Positions 9,579 to 42,959 of a stretch of 64,000 nucleotides of DNA are shown here, in pieces (position 1 is the first letter of the stretch; the number at the start of each line of letters is the position of its first letter). The translations under genes and the position numbers were made by a program. A model generated the notes under the pieces. That model ran no database searches. It had not been told where the DNA came from and was given only the letters and a program-made list of their open reading frames with translations. Origin of the DNA: Gemmatimonadota bacterium. GTDB taxonomy: Bacteria > Gemmatimonadota > Gemmatimonadetes > Gemmatimonadales > GWC2-71-9. The stretch lies in assembly GCA_031402225.1 (NCBI GenBank), contig JANNSD010000034.1, positions 406 through 64,405 of the forward strand. Reading direction: 5' to 3'.

Positions 9579-9723
9579 TCCGACAGGCCTCGGAGCAGTA
9601 CTTCACCTCGGCCCAGTTCTTCGCCCAGCGGCGGCGCCAGCTCATGGGCCGGCCACAGGCCACACAAGGCTTGCTCGGCAGTGAAGCCTTGTTGCCGCGA
9701 AACGTGGTGCGGCGCAGTGTCAT
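9556..9723 (-). CDS. DUF2256 zinc-ribbon protein
   Basis: Own translation (55 aa, below the track cutoff): MTLRRTTFRGNKASLPSKPCVACGRPMSWRRRWAKNWAEVKYCSEACRSAKAKRG. This is the CxxCGRP...WRxxW...YCSxxCR signature, and the ORF overlaps the photolyase start. Confidence 0.8.
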   Translation of the reverse strand: MTLRRTTFRGNKASLPSKPCVACGRPMSWRRRWAKNWAEVKYCSEACRSAKAKRG

Positions 9724-9763
9724 CACGCGCTCCGGCAGGTGGGGGGGAGGCGCCAGCCGGCAC

Positions 9764-10123: not shown

Positions 10124-10150
10124 CCCTGCCTCCGCTAGTGATTACAGTGA
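9766..10150 (-). repeat. 385-bp direct repeat, copy 2
   Basis: See copy 1 (3036..3420). Confidence 0.85.
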
Positions 10151-10219
10151 ACCCATCATGGCGCCGCGGGGGACTTCATCGCATACTGACACGACCCCAA
10201 AGAATATGGTGTTACGCCT

Positions 10220-25264: not shown

Positions 25265-27061
25265 ATGTCCGAACCCCTCGAACGGCTGCGACACGTGCTG
25301 CATGATCGCTACCGCATCGAGCGCGAGCTCGGTGCCGGCGGCATGGCCACGGTCTACCTCGCGCAGGACCTCAAGCACCATCGGCTCGTCGCCTTGAAGG
25401 TGCTCCATCCCGAGCTGAGCGCGTCGCTCGGTGCGGAGCGCTTCCTTCGCGAGATCGCCGTCGCCGCCGGATTGACCCATCCGCACATCCTGCCCGTCCA
25501 CGACTCGGGAGCGGCGGAGGGGATCCTGTTCTACGTGATGCCGTACGTCGATGGGCCCAGCCTGCGTCAGCGCCTCGAGCGTGAAGGCGAGCTGCCCGTG
25601 GCGGACGCTGTGCGCATCCTGCGCGAGGTCGCGGACGCCATGTCGCTCGCCCACCGGCGCGGCATCGTCCACCGCGACCTCAAGCCGGAAAATGTGCTGC
25701 TCTCCGGCGAGCACGCCGTCGTGGCCGACTTCGGGATCGCGAAGGCGCTGCACCTGTCCGGCGAGGGCGACCGCCTCACCGGGACGGGAATGGCCGTTGG
25801 GACGCCGGCCTACATGGCCCCCGAGCAGGCGGCGGCTGATGCCATGACCGACCACCGGGCGGACATCTATGCGCTGGGTGTCCTCGGCTACGAGCTGCTG
25901 ACGGGCGCACCGCCCTTCTTCGGTGGCTCACCCCAGCAAATCGTCGTCGCCCACCTCATGCGCGCGCCCGAGCCCCTCGCGTCGGTGCGTCCGGGAATCC
26001 CGCCGCGGATCGCAGGGGCGGTGATGCGCTGCCTGGAGAAGCGGCCGGCGGACCGCTGGCAGTCGGCGGACGAGTTCCGCCGGGAGCTGGCCGCCGAGTC
26101 GCCGTCGAGCGGGGGCGGCTCGGGCCAGGCGACGGCCACGGTCCCCGGCTACCTGCCGATCACCGAGAACATCTGCCGGAGGTTTGACCGCACGACCTTC
26201 GACCCGCGCATGATCGGCGACCGCCTCCATTACCTGGACAATCAGGTCCGGTCGAACGTGCTGATCCTCCTGATCCAGAACTGGTCGGTCGAGGCCATCG
26301 ATCCGGCTACGACGCTGCCCGGGTCGCCCTACCGGGTGATCGTGCCGACGCTCTACGGATTCGAGCGCGAGCGCCATCCCAGGCTCCCGGTCGGCATTGC
26401 CGACCACATCGTGCTCCTCGAGGCCCTGCTCGACCACCTGACCGCATCGGGAGGCGTGGACGCGGTGATCGCGGTCGGATTCTCGGCGGGCGGTGACCTC
26501 GTGCTGCGGATGGCCGCGGACCAGGGCAGCACCGCTCGGCTCGATGGTTGCCTCGCGCTCGGCCCCAATGTCGGCGTCGAGACGTGCACCGTCTCCGGCG
26601 TGCTCGCCGAGGCGACGAGCAGCGCACCCGAGGTGCTGCTGCCCGCGCTCAACCGCGCGCTCGCCTCGGCGTCGTCCGTCGGGGACTGGCTCGATCTCGC
26701 GGACGACTTCCGCCACATCGTGCACAACTTCGGGGGCGACCTCCGTCCGATCCAGCGCTTCGCGCACGACACCGTCACGCCGTGGCGTGTGGAGGGACCG
26801 GATCTGCTGCTCCGCTGGTATCGGCAAGCCACGGAGGCAGGACGCCTGGTCCGCTGCGTGTTCGAGGACAGCGAGGTGTACCGCAACAGGGCGCGGGAGC
26901 TCCAGTTGCGAAACCTGGACGAAGGCGTGCTCGGCGAGGGCTATCGGCCGGGCTCGATCACGGTGGAACCTGTGGCCCGGCACTTCGAGCTGCTCGACCC
27001 GTCGCTGATCATGCGCCATCTCGACGCCATGGTGGCCGAGCTTCGCGCGGCACCGCAGTGA
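25265..27061 (+). CDS. Ser/Thr protein kinase fused to a C-terminal alpha/beta-hydrolase-like domain; no TM segment
   Basis: GAGGMATVY, VALK, HRDLKPEN, DFG and GTPAYMAPE. The C-terminal half contains VIAVGFSAGGDLVL (a GxSxG nucleophile-elbow-like motif). Confidence 0.9.
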   Translation: MSEPLERLRHVLHDRYRIERELGAGGMATVYLAQDLKHHRLVALKVLHPELSASLGAERFLREIAVAAGLTHPHILPVHDSGAAEGILFYVMPYVDGPSLRQRLEREGELPVADAVRILREVADAMSLAHRRGIVHRDLKPENVLLSGEHAVVADFGIAKALHLSGEGDRLTGTGMAVGTPAYMAPEQAAADAMTDHRADIYALGVLGYELLTGAPPFFGGSPQQIVVAHLMRAPEPLASVRPGIPPRIAGAVMRCLEKRPADRWQSADEFRRELAAESPSSGGGSGQATATVPGYLPITENICRRFDRTTFDPRMIGDRLHYLDNQVRSNVLILLIQNWSVEAIDPATTLPGSPYRVIVPTLYGFERERHPRLPVGIADHIVLLEALLDHLTASGGVDAVIAVGFSAGGDLVLRMAADQGSTARLDGCLALGPNVGVETCTVSGVLAEATSSAPEVLLPALNRALASASSVGDWLDLADDFRHIVHNFGGDLRPIQRFAHDTVTPWRVEGPDLLLRWYRQATEAGRLVRCVFEDSEVYRNRARELQLRNLDEGVLGEGYRPGSITVEPVARHFELLDPSLIMRHLDAMVAELRAAPQ

Positions 27062-27229
27062 GGCGGGGTGACGGTCTTGCGAGGAGCCGGCGATCGTTGG
27101 TGTCGAGGGTTTGACTTCCCTGGTCCCGTCGCGTCGTCCTGCGCCACGCCGGCATCGATGCGCGGCTGAAGCCAGACGAACGCCCGCCGTGATTGGCGGG
27201 CGGCTTGTCCGCGACCTTCTGCTAGAACA

Positions 27230-27367
27230 TCAAGTTGCGATCCACTGTGACGAGGTGAGTGAATCCAGCACTAGCCACTCCAGTAATGTTTGCACCGGGA
27301 CCCGAGTCCCGACGAAAACCAAGGCCCCGCCCATGATCTCGGGGTCTCGGTGAAACGGAAGTGTTGA
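27230..27367 (-). pseudogene. DUF433-like antitoxin-type remnant (last cassette of the array)
   Basis: HRDPEIMGGALVFVGTRVPVQTLLEWL matches the DUF433 core (DP-x-I-x-GG-x-P-x-I-x-GTR-x-PV). No usable start codon and the C-terminal half is missing. An overlapping frame ends ...GFTHLVTVDRNLMF, reminiscent of a PIN/DUF5615 C-terminus. Confidence 0.35.
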
Positions 27368-27444
27368 TCCGGCTGCGGGCCGCGGGGTCTCGGTGGTACC
27401 AATGCCATCGCCCGCGGCCCGGCAGCAGCAAGCGCCTGTTGGCC
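27350..27444 (-). other. attC-like site F (degenerate), downstream of parE
   Basis: On the minus strand: GGCCAAC 10 nt after the parE stop, then a 16-bp stem GCTGCCGGGCCGCGGG / CCCCGCGGCCCGCAGC with one bulged C, then GTTTCAC (27356..27350). Confidence 0.35.
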
Positions 27445-27453
27445 CGCTCAGGG

Positions 27454-27747
27454 CTACGTGCGCGGTTGCCAATAACCAGGGAGCCGGCGATGGTGGGCGA
27501 TAGCGAGGATGAACACGCGATCTGGGTCAACGCGATAGATCACGTGGTAGGGAAACCGCCGGAACGAGAGTCTACGGCTGCCGTGGGGAATCACTCGCCC
27601 GGCTCCCGGGAATTGGAGAAGGAAACCGGGTGTGCGGTCAAACTCAGCAAGGAAGTCGCGGCCCAACCCGCTCGCCTGGGTCTCGTAATACAGGGCAACT
27701 TCGCCCAGCTCCTGATCAGCTCCGGGATGTAGTTCAGCGGGGCTCAT
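27454..27747 (-). CDS. RelE/ParE-family type II toxin
   Basis: FRRFPYHVIYRVDPDRVFILAIAHHRRLPGYW is the canonical ParE/RelE C-terminal block. Overlaps the antitoxin gene by 14 nt. Confidence 0.8.
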   Translation of the reverse strand: MSPAELHPGADQELGEVALYYETQASGLGRDFLAEFDRTPGFLLQFPGAGRVIPHGSRRLSFRRFPYHVIYRVDPDRVFILAIAHHRRLPGYWQPRT

Positions 27748-27970
27748 TCAACTGCGCCCGCGCCTTAGCCAAAGCTTCGGCGGCCGGCACGGCCTTAACC
27801 GAGCCGGCCTTCAAGTCCTGGTAGCGTCGCTCGGTTTCGTTTGCCCAGGCCACGTCGATCTCGGTGTCGGCCGCTTCGAGGCTGTCGAGCAGTGCTTCTG
27901 CCAAACGGGCGCGCACTGCGGCGGGAAGCTGGAGGAGCTCCGCCTCAAGCTGCTCTGGGGTGAGCTTCAT
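27734..27970 (-). CDS. Addiction-module antitoxin (TIGR02574-type 'putative addiction module component')
   Basis: MKLTPEQLEAELLQLPAAVRARLAEALLDSLE...DVAWANETERRYQDLKAG is the characteristic layout. Confidence 0.8.
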   Translation of the reverse strand: MKLTPEQLEAELLQLPAAVRARLAEALLDSLEAADTEIDVAWANETERRYQDLKAGSVKAVPAAEALAKARAQLNEPR

Positions 27971-28048
27971 CGGGGTCTCATGTCGGTTGGGGCTGAATGA
28001 AAGGTAAGTGGCTGCGGAGAGACCGCCAAACGGCGCCAGCGGTGAGCG

Positions 28049-28135
28049 GCCTAACGGTCTGCAAATCAGTTGCGAGGGCGTGTGCGGCGAAGCCGCATCA
28101 TTAGCGCCCTCGCCAACTGCATTTGCTGGTTAGCG
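28049..28135 (-). other. attC-like site A (downstream of mazF)
   Basis: Plus strand: GCCTAAC-ggtctgcaaatcagttgcgagggcg-loop-cgccctcgccaactgcatttgctg-GTTAGCG. Imperfect arms with single-base bulges. Minus-strand R'' CGCTAAC begins 7 nt after the mazF stop. Confidence 0.65.
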
Positions 28136-28141
28136 TGCGGA

Positions 28142-28483
28142 CTAGGGGGCGAACATTTCCTGCAGGACCCCCAACACCCGCTCGAGCGTCGATGGACTGA
28201 ATCGGCCGACCTTCTTGGTGAGTCGGGCCCGATCAACCGTCCGGAGCTGGTCCAGTACCACATGGCCCGCCTTGCCGGCGAAGCGACAGGGGATCCGGAA
28301 CGGGTACGGATGCGACCCCGTCGTGAGCGGCGCGACAATGAAGGTGCGGAGTGCGCCGTTCAACTCGTTCGGCGAGACGACCACGCAGGGGCGCGTCTTC
28401 CGGATCTCGCGGCCGAGCGTCGGGTCGAGGGCCACGAGGAAGACATCGCCCCGGGCCACGAGCTCTGTACTCACCACGTCCAT
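28142..28483 (-). CDS. mazF: MazF/PemK-family type II toxin endoribonuclease
   Basis: RGDVFLVALDPTLGREIRKTRPCVVVSPNELN...FIVAPLTT...VVLDQLRTVDRARL. Confidence 0.9.
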   Translation of the reverse strand: MDVVSTELVARGDVFLVALDPTLGREIRKTRPCVVVSPNELNGALRTFIVAPLTTGSHPYPFRIPCRFAGKAGHVVLDQLRTVDRARLTKKVGRFSPSTLERVLGVLQEMFAP

Positions 28484-28716
28484 TCATCCTGGTCGAAATC
28501 CGTGGCCACCACCGCGTCGAGCAGGCCCGCCTCGGCCGCCGCCAAGGCGGTTGCCGCGTCGGCCCAGCCGGCTCGGGTCGAGGCGAGGGGACGGATGACG
28601 ACGGTGTTACCGTGGACCTCGAGCTGCACGTCCTCCTCGAGCCCGGCCTGCTCAATGAGCAGCTTGGGGAGGCGGATGCCGCGGGAGTTGCCGATCCGGA
28701 CGAGCTTGGCTTTCAT
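28471..28716 (-). CDS. mazE: AbrB/MazE/SpoVT-family antitoxin
   Basis: MKAKLVRIGNSRGIRLPKLLIEQAGL looped-hinge-helix motif. Overlaps mazF by 13 nt. Confidence 0.85.
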   Translation of the reverse strand: MKAKLVRIGNSRGIRLPKLLIEQAGLEEDVQLEVHGNTVVIRPLASTRAGWADAATALAAAEAGLLDAVVATDFDQDEWTW

Positions 28717-28729
28717 GGGGGCTCGGGAA

Positions 28730-28756
28730 ACAGTGTAACTACAATGTAGCTACTGT
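28730..28756 (-). promoter_or_regulatory. Candidate MazE operator (repeated GTARCTAC half-sites) upstream of mazE
   Basis: ACAGTGTAACTACAATGTAGCTACTGT lies 14-40 nt upstream of the mazE ATG. Near-palindromic. Confidence 0.3.
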
Positions 28757-28787
28757 CTGCCTTCGCGCAAGCTGCTCGCGTCGGTCA

Positions 28788-28861
28788 CGCTAACGGCAGG
28801 CGTCAGCCGCCGCGGCGCCCATGATGACACGCGCCGCGGTCGGCTGCGCGCCGTGTTAGGC
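28788..28861 (-). other. attC-like site B (downstream of the PD-(D/E)xK-like cassette ORF)
   Basis: Plus strand: CGCTAAC-ggcaggcgtcagccgccgcggcgc-ccatgatgacac-gcgccgcggtcggctgcgcgccgt-GTTAGGC. Minus-strand R'' GCCTAAC starts 10 nt after the ORF stop. Confidence 0.65.
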
Positions 28862-28871
28862 AGCAGCGTGA

Positions 28872-29443
28872 CTAAGCAGACAACCTCTTACGAATCAGAG
28901 CGACACGAGCGCAGAGCAAGTGTTCCGAGTGGTCGCGGAACCGGCGCCTAGAATCACCTCGGGTCTGGAAGACCTGGTCTGGACTGTCGAAGCCGAAGCC
29001 GAACATCCGGTCTGGCGTACCCGCCACGGTGCGGACCTTCTTGAGGAAGGCGCGCATTTCTTGCTGAGTGAACACGAGGATCAACGGTGACCACCATGTC
29101 CCGAGCTCCCGTTTCTGCGCGGCATCAACCGCTGGGTACTGAGCCACCAAGCAGAACAGGTCGGCTTCGGGCGGGCACTCGAAGCTATTGAACCAGGTGT
29201 CGTAGCGAAACTGGCGTCGCGCCCGCTCGCTTGCTTGCAGCTGGGAGTATGTGCGGGACGACTTGATCTGAATCGACAGACCTTGGTTCGGCCCGCTCGC
29301 CGACGGGACAGAATAAGATCTACACCCTGTTCTTGGCGCGAGATCGGCGCGAACAGCGAGAAGCCCTGTCGCGCCGGGAACAGTCGGGCGAGCTGCTGTG
29401 CAACGCAGTACTCCGGATACGGAAGCGAAAAGATCGGTTCAAT
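28872..29443 (-). pseudogene. PD-(D/E)xK nuclease-like cassette gene, frameshifted and lacking a canonical start
   Basis: Own translation: frame 1 gives ...EYCVAQQLARLFPARQGFSLFAPISRQEQGVDLILSRRRAGRTK, and frame 2 continues GLSIQIKSSRTYS...WWSPLILVFTQQEMRAFLKKV (track ORF 28872..29150). The D...(Q/E)xK pattern is split by a 1-nt frameshift near 29275-29295. Confidence 0.4.
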
Positions 29444-29463
29444 TCTTGACCTCGTGGTCTGCT

Positions 29464-29531
29464 GCCTAACGTGTGCTTCTGCTGCGAACGCTTCCTACCG
29501 CACCTGCGCTCGTCGGCAGCAGGCGTCGCTA
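29464..29531 (-). other. attC-like site C (partly degenerate)
   Basis: Plus-strand GCCTAAC at 29464..29470 (minus-strand R' GTTAGGC). Internal CTGCTGC/GCAGCAG and CGA..GCGC pairings. The upper R'' is degenerate (TAGCGAC) and overlaps the ORF stop. Confidence 0.45.
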
Positions 29532-30362
29532 TATGGCCGTCGCACTGGAAACCGGAACGGCATGCTCACCGAGAGGCATGTGCTTGCCCGCCTTTGGCAT
29601 CTGCAAGGCGAACACACCTGGCTCCTGCTCGAGAATCTTGACGTGCCAATAGAGACTCCCGTCTGCATTTTCGGTGGTACTTAGTTCCGCAAGGCGGGAC
29701 TGAAATAGAGCGTGCGGCGTGGCAAAGCACACCGAAAGATCCATCGCCCCAAGTGCCACGACCGCATCCGAATCATCGGCGAGGAACTCGTCCCAAGCTG
29801 GGTGATACGCGAACCACTAGGGAATCGAGTTGCCCCGTGTGTACCTCTTCGAGAGCGTGCACACCGCGCGGTGGTCCTTGCTGCTGTCCCAATAGGTTGC
29901 CCGCGTCCGCTTGATTAGGGTATAACCGAGCTTTGCGCTTACTGAGGAAATGACTGCCTCCCTCTTGGCGGCGAGAGCGGACGGTGCCGTGAACTGCCAG
30001 GACGACGCTTCGGTGGAATCTCTGGTCTCGTCGGACTCGACGGCGTCGCTTGTCTTGTCCTCGGCATCCTTCGCGGCGAGCCCGCTCCACAGCGCCACGC
30101 GACGGAGCGGGATGTCCTCGGCATGATTGCTGCGCTCAAGGCGCGCCAGTAGCAGTCCGAGGTACAGCCCGGCGATCGCACCCAGTGCACCGTAACCCAG
30201 CGCATGGCTGAGGATCCAGTTGGCGATCGATGGGACGGTAGCGCCGATATCCGGGTTGGTGGCCCAGCGGACAATCGCGACCACCACTCCGAGGGCCGTC
30301 CAGGGAATGGCGAAGAGGGCAGCGAGCTTCAGGAGAGCGCGGAACTGGCGCGAAAAGGACAT
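29529..30362 (-). pseudogene. Membrane-anchored cassette protein interrupted by one in-frame TAG (29817..29819)
   Basis: Track ORFs 29817..30362 and 29529..29759 are in the same frame. Read-through gives ...KRYTRGNSIP*WFAYHPAWDEFLADDSDAVVALGAMDLSV...YWHVKILEQ. N-terminal TM helices; C-terminal domain unknown. Confidence 0.45.
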
Positions 30363-30381
30363 AGCTCAGAGCTCGGTGGCA

Positions 30382-30486
30382 ACCTAACGCGTTGCACATG
30401 CGCTGCGGCCGCGGTGGCGGCGCGAGCGCGACGGCTGAACAAGCTGCAAGCACAGGCCGCGCTCGTGCCGCATCCGGCGGCTAGGA
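30382..30486 (-). other. attC-like site E
   Basis: Plus-strand ACCTAAC at 30382..30388 (minus-strand R' GTTAGGT). Nested stems CGAGCGCG/CGCGCTCG and GCCGCGGTGGCGGC/GCCGCATCCGGCGGC. Upper box TCCTAGC (30486..30480) matches ACCTAAC at 5 of 7 positions. Confidence 0.5.
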
Positions 30487-30502
30487 TCCTTGGATCGGTG
30501 CG

Positions 30503-30676
30503 CTAGGAGGAATAGTGCGTAACGCCGAGCAGGCGCTGGCAGTGCGGGCAGAAGTAGGCGAGGCGCTTGCCGGCCATGAGCTCCCGAACGCGGTGGAAGT
30601 ACAGCTTTTCCAGTGGCTCAGCGCAATGAGGGCATAGCGGCAGCAGGTCATCGCGTTCCTCGAGCCTCAGAGTCAC
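30503..30676 (-). CDS. Small zinc-ribbon protein (57 aa), first cassette
   Basis: Own translation (below the track cutoff): [57 protein letters not shown]. Two CPHC pairs; GAGG lies 11 nt upstream of the GTG. Confidence 0.45.
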
Positions 30677-30708
30677 GACGGGTCTCGCCTCGTGAAATCA
30701 GGTTGGCC

Positions 30709-30715
30709 AGCTAAC
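30709..30715 (-). other. Core-site-like GTTAGCT adjacent to the intI 3' remnant (candidate attI-side junction)
   Basis: Plus-strand AGCTAAC. Same xCTAAC/GTTAGx family as the other junctions at 28051, 28790, 29466 and 30384. Confidence 0.35.
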
Positions 30716-30795
30716 GTGAATTCGACGGCGCCATGCTCATCCCATTGTACGACCCGCAGCCGAATCCGGAAAGGCTGCGGGGCGGGGCGGGGCGC

Positions 30796-31134
30796 CTCCT
30801 GCACCGTCCGGATGTCATACCCCGCCTCCAGCAGGTGCGTCGCGAATGAGTGCCGAAGCGTATGACCACTCGCCTTCTTCGCGACGCCCGATCGCCGGAC
30901 CGCCTGGGCCATGAACCGCTGCACCGCCGACGGGTGGAGCGGTCCTTTTGACCCTTGCCCCGGCGGATGCGAAGCTCCGCTCGCCCCACATCCACATCCT
31001 TGACGCGCAGCCACGAGGCGGACAACCCAGCCCGTGTATGCCTGCTCCATTCGCTGGCTATAGTGGCCCACGCGGAGCTTCGACCGAAAAACGGTCAGCA
31101 GGCGCGGATTCGACTGCGAAGGAGGAGGTGGCAA
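30796..31134 (-). pseudogene. intI: Integron integrase (intI) pseudogene with internal deletions, frameshifts and loss of the C-terminal catalytic Tyr region
   Basis: Frame a: [26 protein letters not shown] (IntI N-terminal HYS-x-RTEQAY-x-x-W block). Frame b: [27 protein letters not shown]. Frame a again: [44 protein letters not shown]. It then breaks into GCCCCGCCCCGCCCCG. About 110 of roughly 320 expected residues remain. Confidence 0.7.
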
Positions 31135-31150: not shown

Positions 31151-32722
31151 CTACTGTGCGGAAACGGCGGAGCGCCCCCCACGCAGCACATACTTCTGGA
31201 TCTTGCCGGTCGCCGTTTTCGGCAGCTCGGCGACGATGGTCATTCCCTTCGGTACCTTGAAACCGGCGAGCCGTTCGCGCGCGAACCCGCGCAACTCTTC
31301 CTCGGTGAGCGCCATGCCGGGCTTGAGCACGACGAATGCATGCGGCGCCTCGCCCCACTTCTCGTGCGGCAAACCGACGACCGCCACTTCCTGGATGGCG
31401 GGATGCCGCAGCAGCACACCCTCGAGCTCGATGGACGAGATATTCTCGCCGCCGCTGATGATCACGTCCTTCAGGCGGTCGCGGATCTCGATATAGCCGT
31501 CGGGGTGGACCACGGCGGCATCACCGGAGTGGAACCAGCCGCCCTCGAAGGCCCGCGCGGTGGCCTCGGGATCACGGTAGTACCCCTCCATCACGACGTT
31601 GCCGCGCATGAGGACCTCGCCCACTACCGTCCCATCGCGTGGCACGTCCACGCCGCGCTCATCGACCACGCGCAGCTCGCCGGCGGTGACGATCGCCACG
31701 CCCTGGCGCGCCTTGATGCGTGCCCGCTCCGTGACGTCCAGCATGGCGTGTTCCGGGCGCGGTTCGCAGACGCAGATGGCCGGTGACGTCTCGGTGAGGC
31801 CGTAGATCTGCGTGATGGCCCAGCCGAGTCCCTGCTCCACGCGCTCGATGGTGTGGGCCGCCGGGGCGGCGCCGGCGGTGAGGACCCGCACGCCGCGGGG
31901 CGCCCGAGCCCGGAGTTCGTCGGGCGCGCCGGCGATGGTGATGAGCACGGTGGGCGAGGCGCAGAGCATGGTGATGTGCTCCGCGCCGAGCAGCCCGTAC
32001 ACGGTGGGGACGTCGGTGCGCCGGGCACAGACGTGGGTTCCGCCCGCTGCGGCGACGGTCCACACGAAGCCCCAGCCGTTGGCGTGGAACATCGGCAGGG
32101 TCCAGAGATAGCGGTCGGCGCAGGTCATGGGGTGATGCACGAGCAGCCCGACGGCGTTTACCCAGGCGTTGCGGTGGGTAATCATGACGCCCTTGGGCCT
32201 CGAGGTGGTGCCGCTGGTGTAATTGATCGCGAGGACGTCGTTCTCGCCCACCTCGTGCCGCGCCAGCAGTGGGGGTGCCTCGGCGAGGAGGCGCTCGTAA
32301 TCGAGCCATCCGTCACCGCCACCCTCCAGTGCCACGAAGTGCTCGATGCCGGGCATCTCGTGCCGGACCACGTCGACCAGGTCGAGGTAGTCGGCGTGCA
32401 CGCAGAGGATGCGGCTGCCGGAGTGGTTCACCATCCAGGCCCAGTCGGCGGGGAGGAGGCGATAGTTGAGCGGCACGATGACCGCGCCCAGCTGCGGCAC
32501 GGCGGTGAACCCCTCGAGATGCGCGTGGGAGTTGGGGGCGATATAGGCCACGCGATCGCCGGGGGCGACGCCCAGGTGGCGGAGGGCGCCGGCCCAGCGG
32601 TCGCAGCGGTCGAGGAACTGGGTGTAGCTCCAACGCCGGGTGCCGTCGACGACGGCCTCGCGGTCGCCGTAGAGCGATCGCGCGCGTTCGCTGAAGGCGA
32701 GGGGACTGAGCGGGGTCAGCAT
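31151..32722 (-). CDS. AMP-dependent acyl-CoA synthetase/ligase
   Basis: [14 protein letters not shown] (AMP-binding motif I), [18 protein letters not shown] and [10 protein letters not shown]. Confidence 0.9.
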
Positions 32723-32737
32723 CGGCAGGATCCGCGG

Positions 32738-33229
32738 CTACTTCGAATCGGTGTTCCACATGTCGTGGATCGCCTTCCAGCTGCCGTCGGCCTGCTTCAT
32801 CCAGACGCAGAGGTACTTCCCCTTCCCGAACGAGTCTTGGTACGCGCCCGCCGTGTAGCCGAGGTCGCCGATCACTTCGGCGTGATCGGTCTTCCAGGAG
32901 ATGCTGTAGGTCGAGTCGGCGAAGTACGCCGCCCATACCTTCTCCGCCGCGGCTCGGCCGACGGCCACGGGCTCGTTCGGCGGGTAGGCAATCGCATCCT
33001 CGGCATAGAACGCCGCCACGCGCCCGGCGTCCCTGGTGGCCGCCGCCGCGGACCAGTCGTCATCGAGCTTCGCCAGGGCCTTCGCCTCAGCGATCGTGTC
33101 AGCGCCCTTGCCGGCGCCCGGGCTCGCGCCCGCGCAGGACGCGAGCGTCACCAGGGCCAATACGCCGGTTGCGTGGAGAACATGCGCTGCCGCCGAACGA
33201 CGCTTGCTCATCGACACAGTGATCATCAT
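32738..33229 (-). CDS. SnoaL-like/DUF4440 lipoprotein (paralog of 16694..17191)
   Basis: LALVTLASCAG lipobox; GKYLCVWMKQADGSWKAIHDMWNTD. Alternative start MSKRRS at 33211. Confidence 0.65.
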   Translation of the reverse strand: MMITVSMSKRRSAAAHVLHATGVLALVTLASCAGASPGAGKGADTIAEAKALAKLDDDWSAAAATRDAGRVAAFYAEDAIAYPPNEPVAVGRAAAEKVWAAYFADSTYSISWKTDHAEVIGDLGYTAGAYQDSFGKGKYLCVWMKQADGSWKAIHDMWNTDSK

Positions 33230-33283: not shown

Positions 33284-33721
33284 TCACCCGGCACGGGTCC
33301 AGGTCTGTGTCTTCCCGCCGACGCCTGCCTTCACCTTCACCTTGAGTGTCCCGTCCTTGTCCAGGCTCAGCTCGGCGTTGTAGCTCGATCCGCGCCTGGG
33401 CGCATAGATGCGGCATCCCGTCGCCTGGGTGGCGTCGCCGGTGCATCCGGTCAGGATATCAATGCCCATGAGGGACCGGGTGCGGAGGGAGGCGTCGCTG
33501 TTCTTGGCGTCGACGGCGGCGGGGTTCTTGAGCCAGGTCACCTTGCCGGTCCAGGCGCTGCCACTCTGGACGATGGTGACCTTGGAGCTGGAATCTTCAG
33601 TAAACCAGACGCCGGCGATGGACTGCGCGGCGCTGCGGGTCGTCGATGCCATCAGGATGCCGACCGAGAGCAGCGCCGCTCGTGACGTGAGGACGTGAAG
33701 ACGTGAGGACGTGATGGTCAT
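33284..33721 (-). CDS. DUF2147 domain protein (secreted)
   Basis: IAGVWFTEDSSSKVTIVQSGSAWTGKVTWLKN...NSDASLRTRSLMGIDIL...CRIYAPRRGSSYNAELSL. The ATG at 33721 overlaps the RND stop (ATGA). Confidence 0.7.
   Translation of the reverse strand: MTITSSRLHVLTSRAALLSVGILMASTTRSAAQSIAGVWFTEDSSSKVTIVQSGSAWTGKVTWLKNPAAVDAKNSDASLRTRSLMGIDILTGCTGDATQATGCRIYAPRRGSSYNAELSLDKDGTLKVKVKAGVGGKTQTWTRAG
33687..33710 (-). repeat. Three tandem 8-nt units GTGARGAC in the first codons of the DUF2147 gene
   Basis: gtgaggac gtgaagac gtgaggac, encoding TSSRLHVLTSR. Same unit as at 63376..63453. Confidence 0.8.
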
Positions 33722-36700
33722 GTTTCCTCCTTCGTTTCCCACTTGATGATTTTGAGGTCGAGGACGGCGATGGAATAGATGACGGGCACAAGAATCAACG
33801 TGACCACGGTGGCGAAGAGGAGGCCGCCGATCTGGGCGTAGCAGAGTGGCTGCCAGAGCGGGCCGCCATGGAGCGCCAGCGGAAACAGCGCCAGCACCGT
33901 GGCCAGCACCGTAATGAGCACCGGGCGCAGGCGCATGATACCAGCGTCGAGCAGTGAGTCCTCGAACGGCTCCCCCTTGGCGTGCATTTCCTCGATGAAA
34001 TCGAAGAGCACGATGACATGGCTCACGATGACGCCGATGAGGCTTACCATGCCCAGCAATGCCATGAACCCGAAGCTCGAGCGCATGACCCAGAGCGAGG
34101 CCAGGGCGGCGACGAGGCCGTAGGGCACGGCGGCGAAGACGATGAGCGGCTTCACCGCATTGCGGAACTGGAGCACGAGTGCCAGGTAGATCATGAACCC
34201 CGATATCGCCATGACGCCGAGGAGCTGGCCGAATCCCTCCGTGGTCTTGGCCTGTTCGCCGGACACGACCAGGGAGTATCCCGGCGGCAGGTTCCGCCCC
34301 AGCTCGGCGATCGGCTTCGCGACCTGGCTGTACACATCGGAGGGGAGCGCGCCGGGGACGGGGAAGGCGAAGACGGTCATCATCCGCACCTGGTCCTGTC
34401 GCCGGATGCGCTGGGTTTCCATGCCGTAGGTGATGTTCGCGACCTGGCCGATGGGAACCTTGTTCTTGTCCTCGGTCGAGAAGATGTAAAGGTTGCGCAG
34501 GTCGCTCAGCTCGGGGCGCTCGCGGGGCTGCAGGCGCGCCATGACCGGGATCTGCTTGTTGGCCTCGCGCAGCACGGCCACCTGGGTGCCGTTCAGCCCG
34601 GCCGCCGAGGAGGCGGCGACATCCTGGTTGGTGAGCCCGGCGAGATTGGCGCGATCAGGGTCCACGTCGATGCGGGTGACGAGGACGTCTTCCCTCCAGT
34701 CGTCGCGGATGCGCGCCGCCTTGGGCGAGGTACGAAGAATGTCCTTCACCTGGGTGGCGATCTGGCGCAGCACCAGGGTATTCGCGGCCTCGTCGCCCGC
34801 GGCCGCCGACGGTGCCACGATGCGCATGGCCACCGGATACTGCACCGGGTTGGTCTGCAGCTGCTGCACATCGATGATGGCACCGGGCACGCGTTCGGTG
34901 AGCGCCAGCTGCATCTGTCCCACGATGCGCGGGGTGATGTCCTTGTCCTTCACCTTGACGATGAGCTGGGCGTAGTTGAGCTGCTGCAGCTCGGGCGACA
35001 CGGAAAACCAGAAGCGTGGCCCGCCGCCACCCACGAAGGCGGTGATCGACTCGAGGACGTCCGTGGGCTTGCCCTTCGTCGGGTGCTCCCGGCCGTACTG
35101 CGTCGCGACGTCGCGGATCACGGTCTCGGCCTCCCGCGCGACGTCGTTGGTGGTTGGAAGTGCCGCCGCGTTCCGGAGCCAGACGTCGACGTAGGAGAGG
35201 TACTGCACATCGTCGGGAAAGAAGGCGCGCGCGAGGTGGCGGTTGAAGAACCCGCCCAGGGCGAGGAACAGGAGCGAGCACGCGAACACCACGCGCCGGT
35301 GCTCGATGGCATACTTGCCCACCCGGTAGTACCAGCCGGTAAAGCCCTCGGTGCGGCGCTGCTCAATGGTGCGCTCCGCCTTCTTTGGCGCGCGCAGGAT
35401 GTAATAGCCCAGCAGCGGAATGAACGTCATCGACACGATGCGCGAGGCGATGAGCGCGGAGGCCATGACGATGGGGAGGCTGTGGAGGAAGTCGCCCTGG
35501 TTGCCGCCGAGCAGCAGGAGCGGCAGGTAGGCCACGACGTTGGTGACGGTGGCAAAGAGGATCGCGGTGGCGAGCTTGGTGGGGCCCCACCACGCGGCCT
35601 GGATGGGCGGGTCGCCCGCCGCGAGGTCGCGCTTGATGGCGTCACCGGCCACCACGGGGTCGTCCACCAGCAGGCCCAGCGCCAGGATGAGCGTGGCCAC
35701 CGAGACCTGCTGGAGGTCGATACCCAGCAGGTAGATCATGCCGAAGGTCATCGACAGCGTGATCGGGATGGCGAGCATCATGAGCAGGGCGGCGCGCCAT
35801 TCCCAGAACCCGATGAGCGCCACGATCACCACCAGCACGATGGCCTCGTACAGCGCGTCCATGAAGAGGTCGAGGTTCTCCTTGACCTGCAGCGGCTGGT
35901 CGGAGGTGCGCTCGATCAGCAGGTCGGCGGGGAGGCGTCCGTGCATCGTGGCGAGGGCGGCGTCGATGTCCCGGCCGAACGCATCGATCTGCTCACCGCT
36001 CCGCATCTGGATGCCGAGCGACACCGCCCGGAAGCGCTGCCAGTGTCCCTGCGCATCCTGGCGGGTGACGAAATTGAGGAAGCGGGGCGGCGTCTGGTAG
36101 CCACGATACATGTCCATGATGTCGCGGAGGTACACCGGCAGCCCCGACGAGGTGCGGGTCATGATGACGCCGCCGATCTCTCTCACATCCGTGAACGAAC
36201 CGGACGGCTGCACCTGCACGTTGATATCGCCGGCCTGGAAGAGGCCGCCCGGGATGGTGGTGTTCCGCGCGGTCAGGATGTCCTTGATGCTGGCGGGCTG
36301 GAGCTTGTACGCGGCGAGCTGCTCCTGCGAATAGCCGAGGAAGACCTGTTCCGGCAGCACGCCGGAGCGGAGGATCTTCGACACCTGCGGCACGCTCAGC
36401 AGCTGGCGCTGCAGGAGGTCGGTGAACTGGTCGAGCTCGCGATAGGTGTACTTGTCGCCGGGTGATGCGGTGAGGCGCGCGAGCGTCTCGGCGGTGTCGC
36501 GGATGACGACCGGCGGCCAGGCATCGGTATAGAAGCCACTGTAGCCCAGGCGGTTCTGCATGAAGTCCTGCAGGTACGCGACCAGCGCGGCATCATCGGC
36601 ACTGGTGGCGAGGTCAATCCCGACGAAGCCGGGGCCGCGCAGGGTCACGATGCTGCTGGCGAATGGCTCGGCGCGAACGGCTTGATCGAAGGTCTCGAGG

Positions 36701-37368
36701 GCCCGGTCCACAATGGCGGGGCTCACCGCCTGGGGCAGGGCAATGACGAGCGCGGCGCGAGGGTGGGCAGTCTCCGCCTTCACGCCCTTCCGCGCGCGCG
36801 CGATGGCGGCGGACAGATCCCGGGCGCGCAGCGACAGTTCGACAGCGCCTTCCTTCGGGCTTGCCACGGTGAGCAGGAGTGCGCTGGTTTCGCCGAAGCC
36901 ACTGTTGAACTGGATCGGTCCCGCGCCCTGTGGCAGGCTGGAATTGATCGCGGCGAGCTTCAGGTTGATGTCGTTGAATTCCTTCTCGGGATCCGTCACG
37001 CTCTCGGAGAGCTGGATCTGGACGATGGAGACGCCGGGAAGGGTGAGCGACTTGATGCCAAAGTCGCCGGCTCCGGAGGGATGAATGACCGAACTCTGTG
37101 CGGCGGTGGCCTCGACCTGGCGGGTGACGAGCTGCTCGATTTCCTCGGCGGAGGTGCCGGGCCAGGGCGTGACCGCTGTGGCCACGCGCACCGGAATGGC
37201 GGGGTCCTTCAGCTTGGGCATCGCCCGGTAGCCGTAGAGGCCCCAGGTGAGGACCGTCGCGAGGAGGACCCACGAGATGTGCCGGTTCTCGACAAAAAAC
37301 CGGGCGGTGTTGTGGGTGTTCTTCTCCTTCTCGAGCAGTTGCCGCTCGCGCTCCTCCGCTGCTCCCAC
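33718..37368 (-). CDS. RND efflux transporter permease (AcrB/AcrD/AcrF family)
   Basis: 1216 aa with twelve-TM, two-large-loop architecture. ARFFVENRHISWVLL N-terminus typical of RND pumps. Confidence 0.95.
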   Translation of the reverse strand: MGAAEERERQLLEKEKNTHNTARFFVENRHISWVLLATVLTWGLYGYRAMPKLKDPAIPVRVATAVTPWPGTSAEEIEQLVTRQVEATAAQSSVIHPSGAGDFGIKSLTLPGVSIVQIQLSESVTDPEKEFNDINLKLAAINSSLPQGAGPIQFNSGFGETSALLLTVASPKEGAVELSLRARDLSAAIARARKGVKAETAHPRAALVIALPQAVSPAIVDRALETFDQAVRAEPFASSIVTLRGPGFVGIDLATSADDAALVAYLQDFMQNRLGYSGFYTDAWPPVVIRDTAETLARLTASPGDKYTYRELDQFTDLLQRQLLSVPQVSKILRSGVLPEQVFLGYSQEQLAAYKLQPASIKDILTARNTTIPGGLFQAGDINVQVQPSGSFTDVREIGGVIMTRTSSGLPVYLRDIMDMYRGYQTPPRFLNFVTRQDAQGHWQRFRAVSLGIQMRSGEQIDAFGRDIDAALATMHGRLPADLLIERTSDQPLQVKENLDLFMDALYEAIVLVVIVALIGFWEWRAALLMMLAIPITLSMTFGMIYLLGIDLQQVSVATLILALGLLVDDPVVAGDAIKRDLAAGDPPIQAAWWGPTKLATAILFATVTNVVAYLPLLLLGGNQGDFLHSLPIVMASALIASRIVSMTFIPLLGYYILRAPKKAERTIEQRRTEGFTGWYYRVGKYAIEHRRVVFACSLLFLALGGFFNRHLARAFFPDDVQYLSYVDVWLRNAAALPTTNDVAREAETVIRDVATQYGREHPTKGKPTDVLESITAFVGGGGPRFWFSVSPELQQLNYAQLIVKVKDKDITPRIVGQMQLALTERVPGAIIDVQQLQTNPVQYPVAMRIVAPSAAAGDEAANTLVLRQIATQVKDILRTSPKAARIRDDWREDVLVTRIDVDPDRANLAGLTNQDVAASSAAGLNGTQVAVLREANKQIPVMARLQPRERPELSDLRNLYIFSTEDKNKVPIGQVANITYGMETQRIRRQDQVRMMTVFAFPVPGALPSDVYSQVAKPIAELGRNLPPGYSLVVSGEQAKTTEGFGQLLGVMAISGFMIYLALVLQFRNAVKPLIVFAAVPYGLVAALASLWVMRSSFGFMALLGMVSLIGVIVSHVIVLFDFIEEMHAKGEPFEDSLLDAGIMRLRPVLITVLATVLALFPLALHGGPLWQPLCYAQIGGLLFATVVTLILVPVIYSIAVLDLKIIKWETKEET

Positions 37369-37374: not shown

Positions 37375-38547
37375 CTACTGGATGGGCCGGACGGCGTCAC
37401 CGTCCCGCACGATGGTGGCGCCCGTGGTGATGACGCGCGCGCCGGCCTCGAGGCCGGCGGTGACGATCACGGAGTTGCCGACGACCTGACCCAGCTCCAC
37501 TGGCTTGAGCCGGGCGACGTCCTTCTTGCCGTCGCTGTCCACGATGAAGACGGCGTAGCCGGTATCGCCCGGGGACTTCTGCACCACGGCGGCGAGCGGC
37601 ACCGCCACCGCTTCTGCGTGCGCGGTCGCGGGGCCGGTCCGGCCGGGCACCTCGAGGGATGCCACCATGCCATCGCGGAGCGCGCCGTCGGCGTTCTTCA
37701 CCGAGACCTCGATTTCGCTGACGCGGGTGTTGGCGTCGGCGGAGGGTGCGATCGCGGTGATGGTGCCGGTGAAGATCCTGCCGGGTACCGACGCGGTGGT
37801 GAGGCGCATCTTGCTGCCCATGACGACGCTGCCGAGGGTGACGTCGGGCACGCCGAAGACGACCTTCACATAGGAGACGTCGGCGAGGACGAAGCCGGTG
37901 GTGCCGGGACCGACCAGGTCGCCAACCTCGATCTTGCGTTGCAACAACACGCCGTTCATCGGGGCAATGAGGGTGGCGTACCCGAGATTGGTCTGGGCCT
38001 CGTTGAGCTGGGCGCGCGCGCCGTCGACGGCTGCCTTGTCGGTTTCGTATTCCTGCTTCGCCGAGTCGTAATCGGGACCGGTGATGCTGTTGGTGGCCTG
38101 GAGGTTGGTGGCGCGGCGGAAGTCGTTGGTGGCCTTCTCGAGCGCGGCGTTGGCCTTGTCGAGGTTGGCCTGGGCCTTCGTGACGTTGTCGACGTAGTCG
38201 GTGTCGCGCACCCTGGCGAGCAGGGAGCCACTGGACACGACATCGCCCTGCTGCAGGTCTCGCTGGCGGCCGTCGGCGCCCTTCACCTGACGGATGGCGT
38301 CGACGTAGCCGTTCACCTTGAAGGCGACGTCCACCTGGGCACGGGGGATGACATTGGCGGAGTAGCGGATGCCGTTGGTGCCGGAGGCGGTGGTGGCCTG
38401 CTGTGTACGAACTGGAATTCCAGAGGGAGCGGCTGGGGGCTTTGGGGTGCAGGCAACAAGCAGCAGCAGAACGCTGGTCGTGAGTCGTGAGTCGTGAGTC
38501 GTGAACGCACGAGTCGTGAGTCGTGAGGCGTGAGTCGTGAGGGTCAT
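37375..38547 (-). CDS. RND efflux periplasmic adaptor (MFP/HlyD family) lipoprotein
   Basis: LLLLVAC lipobox, coiled-coil hairpin (ANLDKANAALEKA...AQLNEAQTNLGYATLIAP), and beta-barrel C-terminus. Confidence 0.9.
   Translation of the reverse strand: MTLTTHASRLTTRAFTTHDSRLTTSVLLLLVACTPKPPAAPSGIPVRTQQATTASGTNGIRYSANVIPRAQVDVAFKVNGYVDAIRQVKGADGRQRDLQQGDVVSSGSLLARVRDTDYVDNVTKAQANLDKANAALEKATNDFRRATNLQATNSITGPDYDSAKQEYETDKAAVDGARAQLNEAQTNLGYATLIAPMNGVLLQRKIEVGDLVGPGTTGFVLADVSYVKVVFGVPDVTLGSVVMGSKMRLTTASVPGRIFTGTITAIAPSADANTRVSEIEVSVKNADGALRDGMVASLEVPGRTGPATAHAEAVAVPLAAVVQKSPGDTGYAVFIVDSDGKKDVARLKPVELGQVVGNSVIVTAGLEAGARVITTGATIVRDGDAVRPIQ
38477..38540 (-). repeat. Heptanucleotide microsatellite (GTCGTGA x4, an 8-nt spacer, then x4 with one variant) filling codons 3-23 of the MFP gene
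   Basis: Read directly: 38477-38504 holds four perfect units and 38513-38540 four more (one is GGCGTGA). Encodes THDSRLTT-type repeats. Confidence 0.9.
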
Positions 38548-39920
38548 GTCTGGCCCAGTGCCTTGTCGAGTTGCGCCTGGGCGTTGTACGCCGAGAGGAT
38601 GGCGTCGGCGTGCTGGGTGTTGGCCTCGGCCAACTCCGATTCAGCCTGGAGGACGTCCTTGAGCAGGACGGCCTGCTCCTTGTACTGGTTGGTGAGCACG
38701 CGAAGCTTCTCCGTGGCGGCGGCCTGGCTGATTTCGGTGACCTTCACCATCTCCTGGGCTTCCTCGAGTTCGCGAATGCGGCTGTCCACCTCGATGGTAA
38801 CCTGTGCCTTGGTGTCATCGAGGTCGTTCGCCGCCTGGGTGATGTCGGCCTTCTTCTTCGTGAGGTCGTTGCTCTTCCGGCCCCAGTCCCAGATGTCCCA
38901 GCGCAGCTGCAGCCCGACGATCCAGTTGGTGGGCGGGACGAAGTCGACGTTGAAGAGCTGCGTCAGCTGCATGACCAGGTTGAGCGTCGGGAGGTAGTCG
39001 GCGCGGGTGATGCGCGCGCCGGTCTGCGCCTGCTGCAGCTTGTAGAGCTTTTCCTGCACTTCAGGTCGCTGCACCACCGCGATCGACTCGGCGTCGGCCA
39101 TCGAGGGGTAGCCGGAGCGGGCGGCGGGGGGCTCCTCGCTGACGCGGAACGGTGTCTTGGTGTCGCGTCCCAGGAGGTTGTTCAGCCGTTGCTTCTGGGT
39201 GATGAGGGCGTTCTTCTGGGTGCGCGCGCTATGCTCGGCCCGGGCCAGCCGTGCCTGGGTATCGAGTAGTTCGTACTCCTGCGCCACATCCTGCTTTACG
39301 TAGTTGTCCACCAGCTTCACCAGCTCGCGATAGAATGCGATGCTCGCGAGGGTGGCTTGCAGGGTGTTCTCGGTCTTGAGGATCTCGTAATACTGTGACT
39401 TGACCGACTTGACGACATCCTGCTGCCGGGCGCGGAGGCCCTGGACCGAGATGGAGTCTTCCACCTCGGCCTGATCGATGAGGAGGCCGGTGCGATGGAG
39501 CTGCAGCAGCGGCTGGGAGACGCCGATGGATGCGGTGGCGAAGAATCCGTCGATGGAGCCGATGGTGGTGTCCTGCCCCGGGATCGGGCCGATGACCGGA
39601 TAGTCACCGAAGGCACCACCGGGCACCGTAAAGGGCTGCTCCAGGATGCTGTAGTTCGCATTGCCGTCGAGGTTGAGGATGGGGAGCCGGTGGGTCTTGA
39701 TGGCGCTGACGGTTGCCGCGGACTTGGTGACGCCGAGTGTGGCATTGACGACGCCGTAGTTGCCCTTGAGGGCCAGGGAGATGGCCTCGTCGAGGGTGAG
39801 GATGGGGGCCGCAAGGGAATACTCCTGCTGCGCCCCGGCAGGGCGCGCGAAGGCGGCGAGGAGCAGTGCAGCACAGGTGGCACGCCAGATGTGGCGAATG
39901 CTCAAGGGATTTCGTGGCAT
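38544..39920 (-). CDS. TolC-family outer membrane efflux protein
   Basis: Start at MPRNPLSIRH (ATG 39920) with signal peptide ...ARPAGAQ. Two repeated alpha/beta OEP halves. Stop overlaps the MFP start. Confidence 0.9.
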   Translation of the reverse strand: MPRNPLSIRHIWRATCAALLLAAFARPAGAQQEYSLAAPILTLDEAISLALKGNYGVVNATLGVTKSAATVSAIKTHRLPILNLDGNANYSILEQPFTVPGGAFGDYPVIGPIPGQDTTIGSIDGFFATASIGVSQPLLQLHRTGLLIDQAEVEDSISVQGLRARQQDVVKSVKSQYYEILKTENTLQATLASIAFYRELVKLVDNYVKQDVAQEYELLDTQARLARAEHSARTQKNALITQKQRLNNLLGRDTKTPFRVSEEPPAARSGYPSMADAESIAVVQRPEVQEKLYKLQQAQTGARITRADYLPTLNLVMQLTQLFNVDFVPPTNWIVGLQLRWDIWDWGRKSNDLTKKKADITQAANDLDDTKAQVTIEVDSRIRELEEAQEMVKVTEISQAAATEKLRVLTNQYKEQAVLLKDVLQAESELAEANTQHADAILSAYNAQAQLDKALGQT

Positions 39921-40020
39921 GAGGGAGAACAGAGTGTTCCAGCGAATGTACGGCGAGACTTGGAGGGGGGGAAGGCACGTCCCCGGGCGAGCTGAACATG
40001 TCACTGGCGCTGAGCGCATC

Positions 40021-40054
40021 TTCGGAGCCACACCCGTTCGACGCGCTCATTTGC
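40021..40054 (+). repeat. 34-nt REP-like element type 2, copy 1 (TTCGGAGCCACACCCGTTCGACGCGCT...)
   Basis: Near-identical to 40064..40097 and 42391..42425. Confidence 0.8.
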
Positions 40055-40063
40055 ATCGGTGCC

Positions 40064-40097
40064 GGCGGAGCCACACCCGTTCGACACGCTTCCCTCA
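40064..40097 (+). repeat. REP-like element type 2, copy 2
   Basis: GGCGGAGCCACACCCGTTCGACACGCTTCCCTCA. Confidence 0.8.
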
Positions 40098-42425: not shown

Positions 42426-42959
42426 TCATCGCTCGCGGTCCTTCAGGACTGGCAGGAATTCCCTCCACGGCCCGACATCCTCCGCATAGTGCTTCGCCAT
42501 GACGCGGGCGACCTGGGCGATGTGGCCGAGGTCGTGGGCGACCCAGGTGGCGAGGAGCTGGCGCAGGGTGACGGCGCCGAGTGTGGGGTGTTCGCCGCGG
42601 AGATCGAGCTCGGCGGCGGAGAGGCTCCAGGAGTGAAGCAGCGCGAGGTTCGTGGCCCGGAGGCGGGCAAACTCGTCGAGCAGGGTATCGAGCGCACGAC
42701 CGGCGTTGCGCTCGCGGTGGCGGAACCGGTCGTACGGGGCAAACGCAGCGTCGTCGAGGTTGAGGATGATGAGGGCGCGGGGGATCCAGTCAGTTTCCTC
42801 GCCATCGATGAGGTGGCCGACGACATCGAAGGGGCTGAAGGAATCGCCGCCCTCGGTGGCGTGGGCCAGGGCCGGGTCGATGCCCTGCAGGAGTGCCTGC
42901 AGCACATGCGGGGTGCGGCGCAGCACGTCGGATGCCGTGTGCGGCAGGCGTGAACTCAA
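42426..42959 (-). CDS. DinB-family (DinB_2) protein
   Basis: C-terminal 177 aa of track ORF 42426..43817. Motifs: FDVVGHLIDGEE, LLATWVAHDLGHIAQV. The TTG start at 42959 overlaps the upstream stop (TTGA). Confidence 0.75.
   Translation of the reverse strand: MSSRLPHTASDVLRRTPHVLQALLQGIDPALAHATEGGDSFSPFDVVGHLIDGEETDWIPRALIILNLDDAAFAPYDRFRHRERNAGRALDTLLDEFARLRATNLALLHSWSLSAAELDLRGEHPTLGAVTLRQLLATWVAHDLGHIAQVARVMAKHYAEDVGPWREFLPVLKDRER

Follow-up and report, generated by a model that had tools for sequence, protein, structure and literature searches.

Described integron types and the locus under study

Integrons with an inverted integrase gene, intI, form a known group, which was found to be paraphyletic (Cury et al., PMC4889954). 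The same study described clusters of attC sites with intI pseudogenes nearby. Recognisable intI pseudogenes were found near only 15 of the 279 attC clusters that have no integron integrase (CALIN), and the insertion of cassettes at secondary sites was listed among the possible origins of CALIN (PMC4889954). Integrons are known in Gemmatimonadota, and toxin-antitoxin (TA) cassettes are common (PMC8618304). Here, we analyse a locus within a 64,000-nt stretch of the Gemmatimonadota contig JANNSD010000034.1 (the whole stretch is called the window, and coordinates refer to it unless otherwise stated), in which the remains of an intI gene are followed by a small array of cassettes. Judging from the sequence, this locus is very probably the relic of a chromosomal inverted-intI integron in a Gemmatimonadota-like genome. 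The terms of IntegronFinder make it a CALIN with an intI pseudogene next to it; two attC sites are intact and three are eroded, and two TA cassettes are intact. All of its components belong to kinds already published, namely Gemmatimonadota integrons, inverted intI genes, TA cassettes, and arrays beside intI pseudogenes.

The locus resembles the Treponema-type inverted group (PMC4889954, PMC3607928) in that intI is co-directional with the cassettes and has the array on its 3' side, the location is chromosomal, and there is no antibiotic-resistance cargo. It differs from this group in its Gemmatimonadota-like host and in having an intI pseudogene, and the likeness concerns the layout. With CALIN (PMC4889954) it shares two or more attC sites in a span of 4 kb, the lack of an intact intI, a recognisable intI pseudogene adjoining the array, attC sites that are heterogeneous, the small size of the array, and cargo of unknown function. 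Unlike the published cases, the pseudogene in the window lacks the region specific to the intI_Cterm profile, and our CALIN call was made with our own covariance model (R2, see below) instead of IntegronFinder. Since the intI_Cterm-specific region is gone, the published screen for pseudogenes might miss this relic.

The sedentary superintegron of Vibrio cholerae is similar in its fixed chromosomal location, here common to a relative, in having cassettes that vary between relatives, and in carrying TA cassettes, which are thought to stabilise the array. However, the window array has 5-6 cassettes and not tens to hundreds, its attC sites are not homogeneous, and its intI is inactivated and co-directional with the array instead of divergent. 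With two intact and three degenerate sites, the locus falls outside the sedentary class as defined by Cury et al. (more than 19 attC sites, or presence in every genome of the species), at least by its number of sites. The name of sedentary chromosomal integron given in the original prediction is thus apt for the conserved location, seen in one relative (locus L166, see below), but not for the heterogeneous attC sites and the small array. The attC sites are also similar to those of class 1 mobile integrons (aadA7), with RYYYAAC...GTTRRRY boxes and two extrahelical bases placed 6 bp apart on the R''-L'' arm; unlike class 1 integrons, the window has neither a Tn402 or plasmid context nor resistance cargo. 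The first extrahelical base on the top strand is G in the window and C in the aadA7 attC.

The integrase relic and its orthologous locus

We read the integrase relic by three-frame translation, by tblastn of the IntI protein of locus L136 against the window, and by nucleotide alignment to the orthologous locus L166. The features of this part of the locus are the following:

31151..32722, minus strand: acyl-CoA synthetase (ACS) gene, directly upstream of intI and co-directional with it; flanking core gene
31113..30737, minus strand: intI pseudogene, made of abutting fragments in different frames, with its stop codon at 30739..30737
31113..31012, minus strand: intI N block, equivalent to residues 1-34 of the intact L136 IntI
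31010..30939, minus strand: intI M block, equivalent to residues 142-167 of L136 IntI, in another frame than the N block
30942..30796, minus strand: intI C block, equivalent to residues 241-288 of L136 IntI
30796..30737, minus strand: intI C-terminal tail and stop codon, in a third frame, identical to the C-terminus of protein P0061 (encoded by L166)
30715..30709, minus strand: attI-type crossover box GTTAGCT (G/TTAGCT, the slash marking the crossover), 22 nt past the intI stop; cassette 1 begins at the T at 30714

The IntI of L136 is the closest intact relative of the relic, with 76% identity across the retained blocks. It scores 418 bits with TIGR02249, the integron integrase model (cutoff 265), and the solved structure that it matches best is IntI4 of V. 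cholerae (PDB 2A3V, 283 bits; the best Xer match has 107 bits). Searched with tblastn across the whole window, this protein matched only the N, M and C blocks. The original prediction of three recombinase blocks in two frames was borne out in coordinates and strand by translation and by tblastn. The blocks abut although their residues are not adjacent in the intact protein, which implies that about 107 codons and about 73 codons were lost in two internal deletions, with changes of frame. The comparison with L166 revealed a third internal deletion, of 97 nt, that takes the LLGH...Tyr region. While the relic had been thought to end at 30796, it in fact reaches its own stop codon at 30739..30737, and the 3' loss is hence this third internal deletion and not a truncation at 30796. 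The parts missing from intI are the catalytic Arg I, the IntI-specific insert, the second His region, and the catalytic Tyr. A complete integron has an intact intI with the residues R-K-H-R-H-Y; in the window, the catalytic regions are deleted and frameshifts separate the blocks.

One could ask whether the relic comes from an integron at all. It could be the remnant of a XerC/D-like or phage integrase beside a TA island, in which case the palindromes described below would be terminators or REP-like repeats, and the fragments do match Xer models. These matches have lower scores, however. On the 110 retained residues, TIGR02249 gives 88.8 bits and XerC 56.0 bits, a margin of 33 bits, and the difference is larger for P0061, the product of the orthologous locus (203 against 91 bits), which keeps the IntI-specific insert. 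The database proteins that best match the relic are mostly labelled integron integrases and carry this insert. The assignment of the relic to IntI instead of XerC/D, made at first from an N-terminal motif, is therefore upheld by scores and by the orthologue.

This orthologue, L166, is a 3154-bp contig (ENA ERZ27247974) whose protein P0061 came from the first homology search. It is about 93% identical to the window over four segments, which are the 3' end of the ACS gene, the C block, the tail, and the first attC, and the two loci have the ACS-intI junction in common. The C-terminal tail of P0061 has the same unusual sequence as the relic. The intI of L166 is also broken, by the loss of residues 1-34 and of residues ~131-182 and by a frameshift, and it retains residues 35-130 and all of the C-terminal half, with both the IntI-specific insert and the Tyr. 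As the two genes carry different deletions, their common ancestor had an intact intI at this site, which each lineage broke independently. That two sister lineages lost the same ancestral intI by complementary deletions and kept their arrays could, in a reading that we regard as rather unlikely, reflect recurrent selection against the integrase and for the cassettes.

The homology between the two loci also delimits the cassettes. Downstream of intI, it extends over 25 of 25 positions up to the GTTA of the attI box, which lies 22-34 nt past the intI stop in the two loci, and there it ends. Beyond this point, the two loci are alike again only in the first attC, up to a position inside its R' box. 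The first attC of L166 (positions 1720-1850 of that contig, where it scores 31 bits) has, in its inner and 3' part, 93% identity to 30472..30383 of the window, in which the 5' arm is not conserved. The cargo of L166 consists of three open reading frames (ORFs) unrelated to the window cassettes, and its second attC scores 57.8 bits. Variation at cassette boundaries, proposed at the outset as a check on the integron reading, is therefore what we observe: the same chromosomal junction bears different cassettes, with homology ending at G/TT crossovers.

These observations also bear on whether the attC cluster results from cassettes inserted at a secondary site, next to a recombinase fragment with which they have no relation. 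The rarity of intI pseudogenes near CALIN and the inclusion of such insertions among their origins (PMC4889954) speak for this scenario. However, relic and array adjoin without a gap, there is an attI-type crossover just past the intI stop codon, and L166 shows the same succession of intI, attI and cassettes at the same chromosomal junction. We reject secondary-site insertion on account of this contiguity and of the L166 layout, and regard it as very improbable.

Two observations concern intI degradation and its surroundings more generally. The retained tail contains a hairpin (CGACCCGCAGCC / GGCTGCGGGGCG, 30750-30784) that lies just before the attI box, with 100% conservation in L166; it could have a role in the recognition of attI or act as a terminator. 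Besides, the database holds in-frame 'mini' integron integrases, P0019 (185 aa) and P0047 (153 aa, in 5 contigs), in which the N-terminal HYS/HFS..RTE block is joined straight to the (H)LHxS...Tyr region and the middle is gone. Internal deletion of intI seems to be recurrent across different lineages.

attC sites and cassettes

The covariance-model search, another of the checks suggested at first, gave two clear matches when model R2 was run on the window. The sites 28861..28788 (44.8 bits, rough E=4e-8) and 28135..28049 (40.9 bits, rough E=3e-7) were matched over their full length on the minus strand, and they are the only R2 matches with E<0.1 in the 64 kb (next best E=0.17). An earlier version of the model, R1, run with filters off on both strands of the 64 kb, already placed 28859..28790 first (25.5 bits) and 28126..28059 second. 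The opposite (plus) strand scores only 14.3 bits at 28788-28861 and 3.5 bits at 28060-28127, a difference between strands of at least 30 bits for sites that are 653 nt apart. The scores fall inside the range of the sites found beside IntI genes in related loci (29-72 bits). Both sites have an intact architecture, with an R box, an unpaired spacer, an L box with two extrahelical bases, and a variable loop, and together they flank the mazEF cassette. In 28135..28049, the single-base bulges occupy positions 14 and 21 along the 5' arm on the minus strand, 6 bp apart. Since this arm is the R''-L'' arm of the top strand, the plus strand would be the recombinogenic bottom strand and the coding strand the top strand. 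The coding strand is, to our knowledge, the attC top strand in all known integrons.

We built our own model because a search of the window against Rfam (gathering and E-value modes) returned nothing relevant; Rfam matched no attC-type family here, so that this null result says nothing either way. The training loci were 80 loci with IntI relatives from a metagenome scan and one 2-Mb contig (L081), and the window was never part of them. Candidate sites were palindromes with CTAAC...GTTRR ends, chosen heuristically next to intI genes, and they have a common geometry: a 7-nt R'' box, a 2-nt spacer, 6 bp, a bulge, 6 bp, a bulge, an inner stem, the mirror arm, 3 nt, and the R' box. An initial alignment of 27 arm-only sites with MAFFT (A2) came out without gaps and out of register, and it was dropped. 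R1 was built from a seed of 9 sites with identical geometry (A3) and detected 46 sites at E<=0.001 in 25 loci; R2 was built on a model-guided alignment of these 46 sites (A5). This training set covaries strongly: 90.9% of the cells form pairs (28-41% with the partners slid), and double changes are found in 239 cells, against 92 in shuffles. One of the training sites (L103, 977-1082) has arms that seem to resemble those of the aadA7 attC.

The other palindromes proposed as attC sites, at 29464-29531, 30382-30486 and 27350-27444, are half-sites. The first (29531..29464, 4.4 bits) keeps its 3' arm (6+6+3 nt) and GTTAGGC, but has lost R'' and any partner for the outer part. The second (30486..30382, 4.6 bits) keeps the central palindrome, the 3' arm and the R' box GTTAGGT, with a 5' arm and R'' that are unrecognisable. 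The third (27444..27350) keeps the R'' box GGCCAAC, the 5' arm and an 11-bp inner stem, and has lost the 3' outer arm and the R' box; it gives only a local match of 7.1 bits to model positions 19-69, with a fold z-score of -2.55. These three palindromes are best read as eroded attC sites. The original prediction of five palindromes bounded by boxes thus holds for 28049-28135 and 28788-28861, which have both boxes and pass the model, and not for the other three. Likewise, the spacing of 7-11 nt after a stop codon is found at three sites, and the remaining two lie at 0 and 16 nt. Further R2 matches at 42815-42867, 39991-40085 and 8399-8465 (E of 0.17-3.6) were judged to be noise, as was 40423-40499.

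The distribution of the boxes follows the array. The pentamer CTAAC is rare, with 11 copies in the window (both strands), and 7 of them, all intergenic, are within 28051-30715, which is about 4% of the window. They correspond to five minus-strand GTTAG boxes (28055, 28794, 29470, 30388 and 30715) and two CTAAC boxes. The array and its distal flank are composed as follows:

30714..30382, minus strand: cassette 1, intact Zn-ribbon ORF 30676..30503 (Pfam Zn_ribbon) and a degenerate attC at ~30486..30382
30387..29464, minus strand: cassette 2, membrane-like ORF 30362..29817 ended by an in-frame TAG, ORF 29759..29529, and the attC remnant 29531..29464
29469..28788, minus strand: cassette 3, frameshifted ORF ~29442..28872 (read in two frames) and the intact attC 28861..28788
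28793..28049, minus strand: cassette 4, mazE 28716..28471 and mazF 28483..28142 (Pfam MazE_antitoxin and PemK_toxin) and the intact attC 28135..28049
28054..27350, minus strand: cassette 5, antitoxin gene 27970..27734 and parE 27747..27454 (Pfam Unstab_antitox and ParE_toxin) and the attC remnant 27444..27350
27349..27230, minus strand: truncated DUF433 fragment at the distal array end, fused directly to the broken last attC
25265-27061, plus strand: Ser/Thr kinase gene, convergent, on the opposite side of the array from ACS

Recombination takes place at G/TTRRRY, and the first six bases of a cassette are hence expected to complement the R'' box of its own attC. This signature of circularisation, noted early for cassettes 3 and 4, was found for both, and they are the two that can be tested. 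GTTAGCG (28794..28788) and CGCTAAC (28135..28129) are complementary at 7 of 7 positions in the mazEF cassette, as are GTTAGGC (29470..29464) and GCCTAAC (28861..28855) in cassette 3. Within each present-day site, the outer two pairs between R'' and R' are mismatched.

The strand polarity of the two sites completes the case against a Xer or phage integrase remnant. Three of the palindromes do fail the attC model. However, the other two match a covarying attC model full length and on one strand, and the cassettes vary between relatives exactly at G/TT. Together with the IntI score margin and the insert of L166, this led us to reject that origin, which we find scarcely credible, in favour of an integron.

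As regards the cargo, MazEF, ParE with its antitoxin, the Zn-ribbon protein and the DUF433 stub were recovered with Pfam, in line with what had been predicted. The PD-(D/E)xK-like function proposed for the frameshifted ORF of cassette 3 was not, as it depends on a sub-threshold match to DUF4365 (E=0.016). The mazE/mazF and antitoxin/parE pairs are full-length by Pfam, with overlapping start and stop codons within each pair. The DUF433 stub (Pfam E=2e-8) covers profile positions 3-28 of 56 and lacks a start codon. The in-frame TAG reported for cassette 2 is indeed present at 29816..29814, and a 76-codon ORF follows in the same frame. The lower GC content of the array was also verified (0.635, against 0.672 in the rest of the window, whose overall value is about 67%); it is at the low extreme among segments of equal size, the minimum being 0.637. 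We found no homologues of the window cargo proteins among 81 IntI-bearing loci. Upstream of mazE, an imperfect palindrome (GTAACTACAATGTAGCTAC, 28735-28753) lies 19-37 nt before the start codon and looks like a TA autoregulation operator.

Layout, present activity and genomic setting

All cassette ORFs of the window share the minus strand with intI and with the top strands of the attC sites, and this arrangement recurs in L166. We thus reject the canonical (divergent) orientation for this locus. Among 29 related metagenomic loci with arrays, 19 are co-directional, with sites downstream of intI, and 10 are divergent, with sites upstream; none of them mixes the two layouts, bar one weak opposite-strand echo of a palindromic site. 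The inverted layout that was suggested at first is hence shown in the window, in its orthologue, and in the majority of related integrons. In a rough neighbour-joining tree of 193-aa IntI C-terminal regions, made with the relatives from soil and sediment sampled here, inverted and canonical integrons are in different clades, with the exception of L139. The nearest relatives of the window in this tree, L136 and L160, sit in the clade rich in inverted integrons, and their own arrays are off their contigs. One of the related loci, on the 2-Mb contig L081, has an intI called as two ORFs of 138 and 193 aa that are 36 nt apart (9548-10582 of that contig) and that may represent an interrupted gene. 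Downstream of it, up to 20100, there are at least eight attC matches and co-directional cassettes, including a PemK toxin and SnoaL-like proteins.

The sequence suggests how the locus came to its present state. Ancestrally, intI would have stood directly after the ACS gene, with attI just past its stop codon and cassettes inserted co-directionally on the 3' side. The inactivation of intI would then have come about through three internal deletions and frameshifts, leaving the element unable to capture or excise cassettes by itself. The array would have been eroded by small deletions, which made half-sites of three of the five attC; one or more of the cargo genes carry a frameshift, and the array breaks off at its distal end inside the DUF433 gene.

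An array without an integrase might nonetheless still work as a cassette reservoir, if an IntI encoded elsewhere in the genome or in the community excises or exchanges cassettes, at least mazEF. Cury et al. proposed that such arrays can be mobilised in trans (PMC4889954), and the two structurally intact attC sites bracket mazEF. An identity of 99.9-100% to the window is found in four Logan contigs, which come from two sequencing runs. One of them (L164) ends at 28766 and another (L162, run SRR20217196) starts at 28795, 1 nt before the G of the R' box of the third attC, with an overlap of exactly 30 nt. If the Logan assemblies consist of k=31 unitigs, which is an assumption, this overlap implies a branch of the assembly graph either just upstream of CGTTAGCG (the crossover of the third attC, 28796) or at 28765. 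Alternative cassettes before mazEF in co-existing strains would fit the start of L162, which is 99.9% identical to the window. Besides, L164 and L165, which come from the two runs, both start at 30792, 4-5 nt from the junction of the 97-nt intI deletion. These contig ends hint at population polymorphism at these points. However, the branch could equally represent a single-nucleotide polymorphism at 28765, other contig ends (29280 and 28748) are off cassette boundaries, and tblastn revealed no second intI within the 64-kb window. A chance coincidence with the crossover has a probability of about 0.01, a rough estimate made after seeing the data. On balance, reshuffling in trans seems rather unlikely, and we favour a relic that is no longer active.

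The genomic setting was analysed by a synteny search with the flanking ACS as query, keeping one genome per species, which returned 80 loci. The ACS protein is 83% identical to that of an uncultured Gemmatimonas metagenome-assembled genome (MAG) and 73-78% identical to those of other Gemmatimonadota MAGs. In the MAGs with the closest ACS (73-83%), there was neither intI nor cassettes beside this gene, and ACS was the only gene in common with the window. As the window and these MAGs have no neighbouring genes in common, the comparison of their synteny is uninformative. More precisely, when 31151-33229 is set against L001-L006 and L016 (ACS 70-83% identical), the neighbouring genes differ on both sides; gene order around ACS is weakly conserved in Gemmatimonadota. 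Exact-protein look-ups of ACS, ParE, the SnoaL-like neighbour and the 172-aa ORF of the intI relic gave no match. Further along, a 7-nt tandem repeat (GTCGTGA, ~9 copies, 38477-38541) is found where the minus-strand ORFs 37375-38547 and 38544-40031 meet, and a 1216-aa ORF (33718-37368) adjoins this pair. These three ORFs are a putative RND-type efflux operon.

Several points weigh against our reading of the locus as an integron relic. We found a single orthologous locus, on a 3.1-kb contig, and the more distant Gemmatimonadota MAGs show no synteny with the window at this locus. The IntI-specific additional domain (ALxRKYP...WxWxFP) is invisible in the window since it has been deleted, although it is present in P0061. 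Three of the five proposed attC sites are non-significant by the model (4-7 bits), and the model itself is home-made instead of being that of IntegronFinder, with seeds chosen by the CTAAC/GTTRR heuristic and E-values that are rough. A scan for sigma-70 promoters and terminators gave nothing usable. Finally, we infer and do not observe that addiction to the intact TA cassettes (mazEF, and parE with its antitoxin) probably keeps the remnant in place, and that the cassettes may be transcribed by upstream read-through or from their own promoters.

The locus provides a well-resolved example of integron decay from an under-sampled phylum, with a sister locus that shows independent erosion of intI and complete turnover of cassettes at a fixed chromosomal site. 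It also draws attention to the inverted layout, which is common in relatives from soil and sediment (19 of the 29 sampled). These results leave the understanding of integrons unchanged. Their practical value is in the correct annotation of such loci, here as a CALIN next to an intI pseudogene, in which two TA modules are intact and several cargo genes are pseudogenes.

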